Shown here: one piece after another, positions 32,404 to 36,081 of the stretch
Position numbering within the stretch: the stretch's first letter is position 1
Layout: every line of letters begins with the position of its first letter
DNA from: Thermotogota bacterium
GTDB lineage: Bacteria; Thermotogota; Thermotogae; Petrotogales; Kosmotogaceae
Direction of reading: 5' to 3'
Assembly: GCA_034660555.1 (NCBI GenBank)
Contig: JAYEJL010000135.1
Location: 1-39,981 of the forward strand
DNA length: 39,981 nucleotides
Program-made: the position numbers and the translations under genes
The notes under the pieces: generated by a model
Database searches by the model: none
What the model was told of the DNA's origin: nothing
What the model saw: the letters and a program-made list of their open reading frames with translations, nothing else

Positions 32404-33300
32404 ATGCTGCTTTTCATTATAGCCTTTTTCTTAACCCTGGCTGCCATATATATATTTGGGAAAATTGGTATAAAGTACGACCTTATGGATAAACCTGCGG
32501 GACAGTTGAAACCCCATGAAAGACCTATTCCTTATACCGGAGGTATGGCAGTACTGGCCGGAATAACACCCGCACTTTTTTATACATCACCTATACTCTT
32601 TGCTGTTTCAGGCATGTGGCTGGTGGGGTTTTTAGATGACAGATTTGGAACTCCTCCAGTGGTAAGACTTCTCTTGCAGCTTGTTACAGGATTCTATCTT
32701 TCTTTCTTTGTATTTAATCACCCGATTTTAAGTTCGATTATCCTAGCTTTTACGTTTGCAGTAATTATAAATGCCTATAATATGATAGACGGTATGGATG
32801 GTATCTGCGGAGTAATATCCTTTGTTTCTTCTTTAGCACTTATTGTAGGCGGTTTAACTGACAATCTTTATATTGTGTTTTCCGCTGCTATACTGGCATT
32901 CATATTTTTCAATTTTCCTCCAGCCAGAATTTTCCTAGGCGACCAAGGAAGCTACATTGTGGGAACTGTTTTCGGTATCGCGCTGATCCAAACATATCAA
33001 GGGCAGCATCTATCACTGGTTATAGCTATTATATGGTTGCCTGTGCTGGATCTTATTCTTGGATTTATAAGAAGGGTGAAGGCAGGAAAATCACCTTTTT
33101 CCGGAGACCGAGACCATTTCTACGATAAACTGTATAGACTGCTGAACAATAACAAAAGAGCCACCGTACTCGTAGCGAGTTTAATGGCTCTTGTGTACTC
33201 ATTTTCTGCAATTTTCTTCAATGGATATGTTCTTTATGGGTTTCTCATTGTTCTATCGATAATCCAGGCATTCTCTTTAAAATCGCTGAAATCTACTTAA
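32404..33300 (+). CDS. MraY/WecA/TagO family polyprenyl-phosphate HexNAc-1-phosphate transferase
   Basis: PYTGG, GFLDD, NAYNMIDGMDG, FNFPPARIFLGDQGS, DRDH. Confidence 0.92.
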   Translation: MLLFIIAFFLTLAAIYIFGKIGIKYDLMDKPAGQLKPHERPIPYTGGMAVLAGITPALFYTSPILFAVSGMWLVGFLDDRFGTPPVVRLLLQLVTGFYLSFFVFNHPILSSIILAFTFAVIINAYNMIDGMDGICGVISFVSSLALIVGGLTDNLYIVFSAAILAFIFFNFPPARIFLGDQGSYIVGTVFGIALIQTYQGQHLSLVIAIIWLPVLDLILGFIRRVKAGKSPFSGDRDHFYDKLYRLLNNNKRATVLVASLMALVYSFSAIFFNGYVLYGFLIVLSIIQAFSLKSLKST

Positions 33301-34225
33301 ACCATCGTATTCTAAAAAGAATAACACCCATTATGATTGCAGTAACTGCACCGATACCCATTGTTATATAGAAAGCATAGGGATTGCTCTGCAATGGCAG
33401 ACTAATATTCATACCATATATTGAAGCGATTAACATGGGAATTGTTAAAACCAGGGTAATGATGGTCAGGATCTTCATTATTAAGTTGAGATTGTTGGAT
33501 ATAACTGAAGCAAAGGCATCCATCATACCACTCAATATATCACTATAGATCTGTGCCATTTCAATTGCCTGCCTGTTATCGATAATTATATTTTCAAACA
33601 GCTCTTCATCTTCCTCATAAAGAGTCAATATTTTTGCGCGTTTTAGTTTTTCATACACAAGCTCGTTGGATCGCAAAGATGTGGTGAAATAAACCAGGGA
33701 CTTTTCCAGTTCTAGCATTGCGATTAATTCTGCGTTTTTAGTTGACTTATGGAGTTCGTTTTCTATTGTGTTTGACTGCCTGCGAATCTCTTTTAAATAT
33801 CTCAAATAATATATGGTAATGCGTTCAAACAACTTCAATAAAAACCTGAATTTCTTTTTTGTTGAAAATCCTGCAAGTTCTTTTTCCAGAATGCCCGAGA
33901 TAATTTCATTTTTACACGCTGAAATTGTTACTATCATTTCAGGAGTTATGACTATACCAAGGGGAAGAGTTTTGTAAGGTACTTCAGGGTCTTCTTTATC
34001 AAAAAATGGGATTTTAATAATTATGTATATATTGTTCTCATCCTGCTCAAAGCGAGCTCTCTCTTCTGGGTCAAGAACATCGTAAACAAAATCTTCTTCA
34101 ATTCCCAGTTCCATTAATAACGCCATATCATCTTCACAGGGATTCTGCACATCTATCCAGGTTTTCTCCTGCAAATTATCGATTTCTTTTAAGGTTCTGT
34201 CTTCAGTAAGGAAATAACGAATCAT
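33293..34225 (-). CDS. corA: CorA family Mg2+ transporter
   Basis: SIYGMN signature, two C-terminal TM segments, DPEERAR, SVISNNLN. Confidence 0.95.
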   Translation of the reverse strand: MIRYFLTEDRTLKEIDNLQEKTWIDVQNPCEDDMALLMELGIEEDFVYDVLDPEERARFEQDENNIYIIIKIPFFDKEDPEVPYKTLPLGIVITPEMIVTISACKNEIISGILEKELAGFSTKKKFRFLLKLFERITIYYLRYLKEIRRQSNTIENELHKSTKNAELIAMLELEKSLVYFTTSLRSNELVYEKLKRAKILTLYEEDEELFENIIIDNRQAIEMAQIYSDILSGMMDAFASVISNNLNLIMKILTIITLVLTIPMLIASIYGMNISLPLQSNPYAFYITMGIGAVTAIIMGVILFRIRWFK

Positions 34226-34311
34226 ACTTTACCCTCCTTTGCTAAAAAAGTTATTAAATCAAAATAAAATTAGTACATTGTGGAGGGTGTAACACATTCA
34301 TAAACATCCTC

Positions 34312-34350
34312 TCAAGGCGGTAAATCACCACTACTACTGTATAATTCCAT
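34312..34350 (-). CDS. Putative corA leader peptide MELYSSSGDLPP
   Basis: AAGGAGGT SD, 5-nt spacer, ATG at 34350, 12 codons, CCG CCT TGA; lies between the promoter and corA. Confidence 0.7.
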   Translation of the reverse strand: MELYSSSGDLPP

Positions 34351-34369
34351 ACTCCCACCTCCTTGCAGA

Positions 34370-34380
34370 ATTATATCACA
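34370..34380 (-). promoter_or_regulatory. Extended -10 promoter for leader-corA
   Basis: Minus strand TGTGATATAAT (TGnTATAAT) just upstream of the leader SD. Confidence 0.7.
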
Positions 34381-34411
34381 GTTACGCTTGTGAATATTCT
34401 CGGATTGATCA

Positions 34412-35155
34412 TCATAAACGCTGTTTTAAGACTTCAAAAGCTATTATCGAAGCTGCTGAGACAGTTGGAAGTGAATAATTAACATTTCTACCGTAAGGAA
34501 TCTTAAATTTTAGATCTGCATTCTTCTTGAATGTTCTTGACACTCCTCTTTTCTCTCCTCCAATAACAACAAACAGCGGAACAGTAAGATCGATATCAAA
34601 TAATGAAATAGAATTTTCTTTTGATGAGCAGGCAATCTTCAGTCCTTTTTGTTTGAAGTACTGTGCAGCTTCTTCATCCGTTTGAACCACAGCTGTTGGT
34701 ATAAGCTCAGAAGCACCAGCAGATGCCTTTGCCACGATGTGGGAAGCATTCATCCAATTCCTCGGTTTTAGAATAAGACCGTCCACACTTGCTGCATGAA
34801 AGGTTCTAATTGCATAACCGAAGTTAAATGGATCTTCTATTCCATCAAGCATTACAACAAAGGGGGCTCTGTCTCTATTACCAAGAGAAAGTTCTTCAAG
34901 CTTAAGATATTCTCGTTCTCCAGCAATAGCCAGAATACCACCATGGGTTTTACCCGTGGCCAGATTATCTATAAAGTCTTTTTCAACCAATTCAATCTTA
35001 GCTTTCCGTGAGCCTGCAAGTTTAACAAGATGGTCAATTGTTCCTCTATTCTTTCCTTTTTGAATGTAAATCTCTTTTATTTTCCTACTTCGCGCAATCA
35101 ATGAAGATTCAACACTTATGTACCCTTCGAGGATACAGTGATCAATTTTCTTCAT
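34412..35155 (-). CDS. TrmH/SpoU family RNA 2'-O-methyltransferase (RlmB-like)
   Basis: [35 protein letters not shown]. Confidence 0.9.
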
Positions 35156-35981
35156 TTTTATGTTCCTTCCTGTTATTTGAAAACCATTCGGAAGCGAAAT
35201 CTACCAGAACCTTTTGTGGAATCATCCTGGCTTTTGCTACACCAAGCTTTCCTTTTCTAACCAGGTGTGACATCTGGTTTTCAAAAGCGTTCCCCACATC
35301 TTCGAAATCATCCGACGACAAATCAAGATCCTTGAATGTTACCCATTCTCTTTTTCCATTGACCATTACTGGTGCTCCCTGTTCTATCAATTCTTTTGAT
35401 GGATAATCTGAAAGGTATTCAACAAGGTGAAGAGATGTATTTTTTGAATAACCAACGCCCAACAGCAAAATCCACGCTCCAAGTTTATAGAGCTTTCCAA
35501 GGGGCGAATCAGGCCCCAACGAATAGGATAAATGATGACCCTCCGTGATATACTTTGCATATTTTCCCCAGGCAGTAAAGGAAACCTGTGGATGTTCACT
35601 TCTTACTACATTATGTTGCTTTCTGAATGTTTCAGCTATGATTCCCATACCCCTTGTTGGTGTTAATGAAGGATCGAAGACCGGCATATTGTCTCTCATT
35701 ACCCCCCACCAACTTTCGGGTACAGGTGGATTGCTTCAGTCCGAGGGTTCAAAGTAATCTGATGAATGAGCAGGCATGACAAGTGTTCCCTTCTCCGTTA
35801 AAATCTCCTCAAGGGCTTGAATAACCGTAACTGCTCCACCGCAAACCCATCCCAGCGATTGAAGAGATGAGTGCACAATTACCGTTAAGCCCTCTCTCAT
35901 TCCGAGTTCATTAAAATCCTTCTTTAAACTATCCTTTGTTATGGGAACATCACTCTTTAAGACGGCCTCTTTTTCATCCAT
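35142..35981 (-). pseudogene. AAC(3)/YokD family N-acetyltransferase with an in-frame TGA
   Basis: Two same-frame ORFs; VHSSLQSLGWVCGG...[14 protein letters not shown]...RSEHPQVSF...NTSLH; TGA at 35736-35738; GGAGG RBS before ATG at 35981. Confidence 0.9.
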
Positions 35982-36081
35982 AGTAAAAATCCTCCACTTC
36001 CCAGTGATTCTATACAAAAAAATGGTTGACTTAATGTTATCTGAAGTCAACCCATTTTACAATATTAAATATATTATGGCG

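Follow-up and report, generated by a model that had tools for sequence, protein, structure and literature searches.

A conserved short leader ORF upstream of corA in Thermotogota as a candidate ribosome-based Mg2+ sensor

Sensing of Mg2+ by a leader peptide has been shown experimentally only in enterobacteria, for mgtL, corL, mgtQ and mgtP. In the case of MgtL and CorL of Salmonella and E. coli, a short open reading frame (ORF) with proline and acidic residues lies in the leader of a Mg2+ importer gene. According to the parts of PMC11552253 and bioRxiv 10.1101/2021.02.02.429294 that deal with these leaders, intracellular Mg2+ is sensed via the ribosome, and expression of the transporter varies inversely with translation of the leader; for corL, the former source describes this inverse relation with corA, which responds to intracellular Mg2+. 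The preprint, in the part concerned, also reports that short nascent chains rich in aspartate, glutamate and proline (D/E/P) destabilise ribosomes, and do so more at low Mg2+. In the mgtCBRU operon of Salmonella, the 8-codon ORF mgtQ precedes mgtB and controls its translation through a hairpin that sequesters the ribosome-binding site (RBS), mutually exclusive pairings and ribosome-destabilising acidic codons (PMC8092293, passages on mgtQ). Here we describe a 12-codon ORF upstream of corA in a Thermotogota bacterium (Kosmotogaceae). The DNA analysed is a stretch of 39,981 nt, referred to as the window, which comprises positions 1-39,981 of contig JAYEJL010000135.1 (assembly GCA_034660555.1). 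As judged from homologous loci, the ORF is real, conserved and not a chance ORF, and it is almost certainly translated. It has the layout of the described class: a short conserved ORF with its own Shine-Dalgarno (SD) sequence, behind a promoter, in the leader of a Mg2+ importer gene. The peptide probably acts in cis to control the translation of corA. On sequence comparison, this leader is functionally like MgtL, CorL and MgtQ, but belongs to a different family that is unrelated to them in sequence.

All elements of the leader lie on the minus strand, inside a gap of 186 nt between corA (33293-34225; 310 aa with a GMN motif; Pfam CorA, 3.7e-57) and the upstream gene at 34412-35155. In the direction of transcription, an extended -10 promoter element (TGATATAAT, 34378-34370) is followed by the SD of the leader ORF (AAGGAGGT, then a G; 34364-34357), which consensus folds mark as a potential partner of the anti-SD sequence described below. 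The upstream ORF itself (uORF; ATG at 34350, TGA at 34314-34312) has 12 codons plus the stop and encodes MELYSSSGDLPP. The segment GAGGATGT (34311-34304) stands immediately 3' of the leader stop. Within the 86-nt spacer from the leader stop to the corA ATG (34225) lie the anti-SD sequence ACCCTCC (34288-34282) and the corA SD GGAGGGT (34237-34231). These six elements had been listed in a first-pass annotation of the DNA, and all of them were recovered at these positions. Transcription is predicted to start at about 34364-34362, which would place the uORF SD at the extreme 5' end of the mRNA. The extended -10 was missed by a simple scan for promoters and terminators, as the -35 is weak, and the scan detected no terminator-like site in the leader. 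The ORF listing showed a single competing long ORF on the same strand, a 34-aa GTG frame that starts within the SD.

CorA was searched for in 41 related genomes and subsequently across all of the phylum's 151 genomes. Orthologues of corA were found in 59 of the 151 genomes at E <= 1e-30, and the upstream DNA was examined for 57 loci from 56 of these 59 genomes; the three genomes left out had partial or contig-edge matches. A homologous leader ORF with a strong GGAGGTG-type SD precedes the 310-aa corA orthologue at 39 of the 57 loci, spanning four families of the phylum, and in nearly all of them the SD lies 6-8 nt 5' of the uORF start. One additional locus (L090) has kept the frame with ACG in place of ATG. 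An extended -10 (TGnTAnAAT) occurs 28-56 nt 5' of the uORF start in 35 of the 39 loci; hence, the uORF should lie within the corA transcript.

Pattern searches indicate that the leader is tied to corA. The first 17 nt of the uORF have exactly one occurrence per genome in 19 of the 151 genomes, always before corA. Sites with one mismatch to this 17-mer elsewhere in the phylum were considered as further leaders and rejected as chance matches, since none of the nine inspected (of ten; L057 was left out) combined an SD with a similar peptide. A degenerate pattern, P-L-x-R-P-P-stop with an SD, matched in 17 of the 151 genomes, with 16 matches at corA and one elsewhere, versus two matches for the reversed control. 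A scan of metagenomes with the 17-mer returned 103 stretches, of which 15 were true leaders (10 distinct sequences); they add no diversity for covariation analysis because all are near species already sampled. The same first 17 nt (34334-34350 in the window, minus strand; loci L002-L019) are identical, synonymous sites included, in 18 of the 19 loci of the window's family, despite a CorA identity between genera of only 57-73%. No pairing partner for this segment that is conserved across all genera was found.

The 39 uORF loci encode 23 distinct peptides of 12-19 residues. In the window's genus the peptide has the form MELYSS[SN]GD[LI]PP, and related forms are ME[LI]YSSEG[DN]LPP and MELYSSESEPP[PL]; further members of the family are MELYSSESDLPP, MDYFSCSEDPLSRPP, MESNSSEVPLRPP and MSSESYTSSYSDEPLPRPP. 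Arginine is encoded by AGA (10 times), CGA (8 times) or CGT (once), serine by AGY or TCN, and leucine by TTA, TTG or CTG, while both terminal proline codons differ at the third position among loci. This synonymous variation implies that the peptide itself is under selection, in agreement with the view of the first-pass annotation that the short ORF before corA encodes a leader peptide. The penultimate proline codon is never CCT (0 of 38), a codon that would create CCUCC.

The same data bear on the idea that the peptide acts as a small protein, for instance on CorA, or that the ORF is there by chance while the function lies in the RNA alone. The identity of the first 17 nt, synonymous sites included, points to some constraint at the RNA level, and regulatory small peptides do exist in the mgtCBRU operon of Salmonella (PMC8092293, passages on this operon). 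However, the retention of amino acids through AGA/CGA and AGY/TCN switches rules out an element that consists of RNA only. Being hydrophilic and variable in length (12-19 residues), the peptide also differs from MgtR and MgtU, which are hydrophobic membrane peptides (same passages of PMC8092293), and the position of the stop is fixed relative to the corA RBS, which fits a role in cis. We therefore consider a small-protein or RNA-only function very improbable.

The conserved part of the peptide is C-terminal (...[DE][DE]PL[PS]RPP-stop or ...DLPP-stop), whereas the critical motif of MgtL is N-terminal (MEPDP). Pro-Pro is contained in 37 of the 39 peptides and is preceded by arginine in 19 of the 20 peptides of the compact type introduced below; 30 of the 39 peptides end in Pro-Pro-stop. 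A Pro-stop end as in TnaC is present in the window (CCT TGA at 34317-34312) and in 31 of the 39 family members (30 Pro-Pro, one Leu-Pro). TnaC, RAPP-type leaders and CutF resemble the Thermotogota leader in that a C-terminal proline occupies the P site with a stop or proline codon in the A site, in a small ORF upstream of the regulated gene, according to the relevant passages of PMC8092293, PMC12992588 and PMC9973294; in CutF, the last of these describes how the stall remodels a stem-loop at the RBS. The likeness is incomplete. A C-terminal RxPP as in RAPP-type leaders (x = A, G, S or P) is absent, as the window's peptide ends in GDLPP and compact peptides end in [PS]RPP-stop, with the arginine directly before Pro-Pro. 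Moreover, an RPP-stop or LPP-stop peptide of this size is not long enough to emerge from the ribosome, which means that it cannot serve to monitor export. As for the stop codons themselves, compact leaders use only TAA or TAG (20 of 20), while extended leaders mostly use TGA (16 of 19).

The leader occurs in two architectures. In the compact form (20 loci), the leader stop lies 7-15 nt 5' of the corA SD and 20-30 nt 5' of the corA ATG, the spacer is A/T-rich without a conserved structure or an anti-SD helix, and the strong SD of corA itself is kept in all loci. In the extended form (19 loci), which is that of the window's family and comprises four genera, the distance from stop to ATG is 71-90 nt, an anti-SD strand lies in the spacer, and all uORFs have exactly 12 codons. 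The compact form is probably ancestral. An anti-SD role for the Arg-Pro-Pro codons of compact leaders was considered and rejected, as only a weak ACC.CC:GG.GGT pairing is predicted, in about half of them. In MgtL and CorL, the target of control is transcription, by way of Rho and long alternative stem-loops, whereas the Thermotogota leader looks purely translational; Rho-dependent attenuation is unlikely here because the compact form leaves just 20-30 nt between stop and ATG. The compact leader without an anti-SD, which is the form in most lineages, was missing from the first-pass annotation. In two genera without the uORF (L060-L066 and L068), inspection by eye showed the corA SD in a small local hairpin, consisting of ACTCC, a loop of 4-7 nt and GGAGGT. 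This hairpin is a different, simpler way to hide the corA SD, within the last ~35 nt before corA, and it could be thermometer-like.

In the extended form, folding predicts that the anti-SD strand closes the corA RBS. We folded 18 extended leaders, leaving out one of two identical loci among the 19. An alignment of all 18 with MAFFT followed by RNAalifold was discarded, as the genera were out of register around the anti-SD, and subsets and per-sequence duplexes were used instead. Per-sequence duplex folding recovered the anti-SD strand and closing helix in all 18 leaders. The helix is ACCCTCC:GGAGGGT in the window's genus and GCTCCACCCTCC:GGAAGGAGTGGAGC in a second genus (g3), and in a third genus (g5) it extends to ~25 bp, with -23 to -36 kcal/mol, and takes in the GTG start together with codons 2-3. 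Both strands differ correspondingly between genera, which we count as support and not as a statistical test. In full-length leaders at equilibrium, pairing between the anti-SD core and the corA RBS has a probability (P) of at least 0.74 in 14 of the 18 leaders and of 0.92 in the window, where the corA SD of the free leader has an unpaired probability of 0.01. The closure of the corA RBS proposed in the first-pass annotation therefore holds for most predicted folds. Furthermore, 11 of the 18 duplexes beat 95% of the shuffled spacers; the window's is marginal, and six others are no better than chance. When the nine sequences of the best-aligned genus were aligned, pairing extended to 95.1% of the cells of the helix, compared with 48.6-73.6% when the partners are slid.

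The anti-SD has other potential partners upstream. The first-pass annotation had named GAGGATGT, just 3' of the stop, as the alternative partner, and this proposal stands for the window's genus and not for its sister genera, which have the same peptide but where the uORF SD competes. The pairing GAGGATGT:ACACCCTC, with 7 of 8 pairs formed, is identical in five loci of the genus, and the GAGG:CCTC pairing within it reaches P values in full-length folds of 0.08, 0.34, 0.80, 0.71 and 0.04. Two of the other three genera have no counterpart of this pairing and the third has a weak one. Outside the window's genus the alternative partners are negligible at equilibrium, but they are predicted in nascent prefixes. 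When the transcript was folded as a nascent RNA ending just short of the corA SD, the anti-SD paired with the post-stop segment in all five loci of the window's genus (P 0.43-0.66). In the second genus it paired with the uORF SD in three loci (P 0.87, 0.84 and 0.30), and likewise in the third genus in eight of nine loci (0.49-1.00; 0.01 in the ninth). RNAalifold also paired the anti-SD with the uORF SD: in the subset containing the window by 7 pairs (9 of 9 sequences) and in the other subset by 6 pairs (7-9 of 9 sequences). In these models, the conserved logic is a three-way choice between uORF SD, anti-SD and corA SD, in which the post-stop GAGG is a locally plausible kinetic competitor in the window's genus only. 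By comparison, mgtQ is intergenic within an operon, its proline codon is dispensable and its translation promotes that of mgtB (PMC8092293, passages on mgtQ), whereas the Thermotogota uORF is predicted at the 5' end of the mRNA, typically ends in Pro-Pro-stop, and has its own SD or the post-stop GAGG as competitor for the anti-SD.

These features suggest that the leader controls corA translation through ribosome occupancy, and especially through a ribosome parked on the Pro-Pro end; we give this reading a probability of roughly 0.55. Common to both forms would be that a ribosome on the last leader codons adjoins the corA RBS, either linearly (compact) or via the helix and its competitors (extended). 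In Mg2+-replete cells, the uORF SD, which is very strong, would recruit ribosomes efficiently; these would travel to the Pro-Pro end and be slow to depart, which would keep the leader occupied. In the compact form, given the size of a ribosome footprint, the parked ribosome would sterically hinder a 30S subunit at the corA RBS. In the extended form, the anti-SD ACCCTCC would shut the corA SD if no element further 5' captures it beforehand; this element may be the post-stop GAGG in the window's genus and the uORF's own SD in all extended genera. Leader ribosomes covering these 5' elements would leave the anti-SD free and corA closed, and on a vacated leader the 5' elements would capture the anti-SD and corA would open. 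At low Mg2+, ribosomes on the short acidic, proline-containing nascent chain would stall early or drop off, as on MgtL, and corA would again open. By analogy with the enterobacterial leaders, Mg2+ is somewhat favoured as the signal. The sign of control, in which low Mg2+ vacates the leader and CorA rises, is put forward more tentatively, at slightly less than even odds.

A stronger version of this reading is that the Pro-Pro-stop peptide is a true termination arrest peptide whose release depends on free Mg2+, such that the peptidyl-transferase centre and the nascent chain together would form the Mg2+ sensor in a phylum largely devoid of the M-box. One ancient peptide would then be wired to corA in two ways, by direct occlusion of the RBS and by a three-way SD/anti-SD/SD switch. 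Termination is slow after a C-terminal proline, and stalling is possibly greater without release factor 3 (RF3), according to the passages of PMC7246954 on termination; at the curated cut-off, none of the 31 genomes of the window's order had a match to RF3 (prfC), and the best matches were paralogues of the size of elongation factor G. We regard arrest at termination as a speculative reading that is doubtful on balance. If true, it would be the first termination-arrest Mg2+ sensor and the first leader-peptide control by Mg2+ described outside Proteobacteria.

Several results weigh against control by a parked ribosome. Of the 57 orthologous loci, 18 have no uORF; they come from a whole family, from three genera of a second one and from a single genus within the window's family. 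Whereas the first-pass annotation treated Pro-Pro-stop as the end of the peptide, nine of the 39 peptides end otherwise (seven in PPL-stop, one in LP-stop and one in PN-stop). The window's peptide has at most three D/E/P residues in any six, versus a published criterion of four in six, which only 19 of the 39 family members reach. The window's duplex of -18.0 kcal/mol is marginal against dinucleotide shuffles (-12.5 +/- 2.8), as 17 of 300 shuffles were as good. As to covarying anti-SD pairs, which the first-pass annotation had put forward as a check, covariation in the 9-sequence alignment was weak, with one pair changed on both sides and a score that 345 of 500 column shuffles reached. That annotation had also held that a ribosome at the leader stop covers the post-stop GAGG and thereby frees the anti-SD. 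In the nascent transcripts of the genus, the anti-SD is indeed predicted to pair first with the GAGG, but blocking the stop footprint at equilibrium left access to the corA SD in the window's leader unchanged (0.31 vs 0.30). In nascent folds with the footprint blocked, the anti-SD moved to the uORF SD (0.70-0.83 in four of the genus's five loci), and hence a further ribosome, queued on the uORF SD, would be required for repression as well. In the long-helix genus g5, blocking the footprint slightly raised access to the corA RBS in nine of nine loci, to 0.20-0.63, which is the opposite of the proposed sign. The available RNA data do not help either. Six runs contain small shares of the stretch (0.06-0.10 of words) and four were aligned, and the RNA-library contigs that cover the leader come from relatives ~92% alike. 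Contig ends at 34345 and 34319-34325 were rejected as transcript ends, since they flank a 39-nt piece of far higher depth that reflects a break in the assembly graph at a conserved 39-mer.

Some of these results instead fit positive coupling. A ribosome pausing at the Pro-Pro end would then unwind the base of the closing helix in the extended form, or hand over or reinitiate 20-30 nt downstream in the compact form. This implies that corA is translated only if the leader is translated to its end and that a longer pause yields more CorA, as in CutF-cutO or classical translational coupling. In g5, the 5' strand of the closing helix begins 1-7 nt past the uORF stop in nine of nine loci, next to the stop footprint whose blocking raises RBS access there, and the models fit this opposite sign in the long-helix genus at least as well as the sign expected of a parked ribosome. 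At equilibrium, 14 of the 18 leaders are predominantly closed, so that some opener is needed; the genus g6 (three loci), which lacks the uORF, shows by eye no anti-SD motif upstream of corA either; and in CutF, a C-terminal proline-rich stall unfolds the stem-loop that shields the cutO RBS (PMC9973294, passages on cutO). However, in the window's genus the stop footprint left RBS access level or lower in four of five loci and raised it in one, the values for the four loci other than the window's changing from 0.26 to 0.26, from 0.27 to 0.29, from 0.43 to 0.37 and from 0.30 to 0.42. The strong corA SD in all compact loci argues for independent initiation, and should low Mg2+ cut leader translation short, as in the case of MgtL, positive coupling would make the importer fall when Mg2+ is scarce. 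We consider this alternative rather unlikely. As a test of the switch, equilibrium folding with a blocked footprint was set aside: it had no consistent effect in the window's genus and does not settle the sign of control.

The parked-ribosome reading might also hold with a signal other than Mg2+. The device could respond to proline or charged tRNA-Pro, elongation factor P (EF-P), release-factor or general translation capacity. Alternatively, a small ligand or a further substrate of CorA (Co2+ or Ni2+, for example) could act on the nascent chain inside the exit tunnel, in the way that tryptophan does in TnaC. The Pro-Pro end is, after all, the most conserved feature of the peptide, together with the arginine before it in compact leaders, and at termination a peptide of 12-19 residues would still be wholly inside the exit tunnel, so that sensing would have to be intraribosomal. 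Known leaders offer precedents: mgtP and MgtL are reported to respond to proline codons and charged tRNA-Pro, and TnaC to stall at Pro-stop with its ligand (PMC8092293, passages on these leaders), and RxPP sequences are strong arrest motifs (PMC12992588, passages on arrest). Conversely, corA is the sole downstream gene, the pattern searches of the 151 genomes found the leader nowhere else, and it is hard to see why a sensor of proline or EF-P should be linked to a Mg2+ channel; moreover, the leader ends in RPP-stop or LPP-stop and not in RxPP. Overall, a signal other than Mg2+ appears quite improbable.

Known RNA sensors of Mg2+ do not account for the leader. No Rfam family reached its gathering score anywhere in the window. 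At E <= 10, region 34100-34550 gave only three chance-level hits to unrelated families, and Mg_sensor (the mgtA leader) was not matched, which together with the different phylum sets the Thermotogota leader apart from MgtL and CorL. Likewise, 20 related loci had no match to Rfam, the M-box (RF00380) included, which agrees with the first-pass proposal of control without an M-box riboswitch. The M-box (ykoK) resembles the present element in its position upstream of Mg2+ transporter genes, both being thought to be off at high Mg2+, but it is a metal-binding RNA fold, whereas the Thermotogota element is proposed to need translation. An M-box was found in only one of the 151 genomes of the phylum. 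This lone copy (L291, G080:C227:525-691) was dismissed as a relevant sensor, since it precedes a carbon-nitrogen hydrolase gene and not corA or a Mg2+ transporter gene. It sits on a 2.2-kb contig that may be foreign or mis-binned DNA.

Outside the phylum, we scanned one genome per prokaryote species and inspected the best 80 relatives of corA. One of these, 91% identical, is probably a member of the phylum, and the other 79 came from Bacillota, Cloacimonadota, Desulfobacterota, methanogens and others. Leaving aside a trivial MPP of 3 codons, no uORF ending in Pro-Pro-stop was present in the 250 nt upstream of any of these 79. Eight of the 79, of the Clostridia/Bacillota type, carried different uORFs of 18-32 codons that start with MD[SCAG]DP, MEGDP, MDSGP or MKSDP (L115, L141, L143, L146, L153, L168, L177 and L180). 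It follows that this corA subfamily gained acidic, proline-containing leaders independently, more than once. In their first residues the MDxDP-type uORFs look like the N-terminus of MgtL, and they have no relation to the Thermotogota peptide.

Full-text searches of the literature, supplements excluded, returned no description of a leader peptide for corA or another Mg2+ transporter in Thermotogota, nor of a Pro-Pro-stop leader beside an SD. The family described here is conserved over much of a deep-branching phylum that is largely without the M-box, and it shows two wirings of one peptide. It would thereby support the ribosome as a general, repeatedly evolved solution for sensing Mg2+. With 12-19 codons, and a stop in the compact form only 7-15 nt from the regulated SD, the leader also offers a very small system in which to study proline ends, acidic residues and Mg2+ at termination. 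For genome annotators, it is an unannotated small ORF to add before corA in Thermotogota genomes.

The gene upstream of the leader (34412-35155, minus strand) encodes a SpoU/TrmH-type RNA methyltransferase (Pfam SpoU_methylase, 5.8e-24). This neighbour is not kept in other genera, where the sequences upstream of corA differ between genera. A second, distant CorA-like frame is present in the same genome (G000:C181:31070-31882), with 23% identity and one in-frame TGA. Further along the window, at 35142-36050 on the minus strand, a gene of the aminoglycoside N-acetyltransferase family appears to be split: a 185-aa ORF corresponds to positions 60-231 of the 232 positions of Pfam Antibiotic_NAT, and a separate 104-aa ORF that overlaps nothing lies just upstream. 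The split could reflect a frameshift, a pseudogene or an assembly error.

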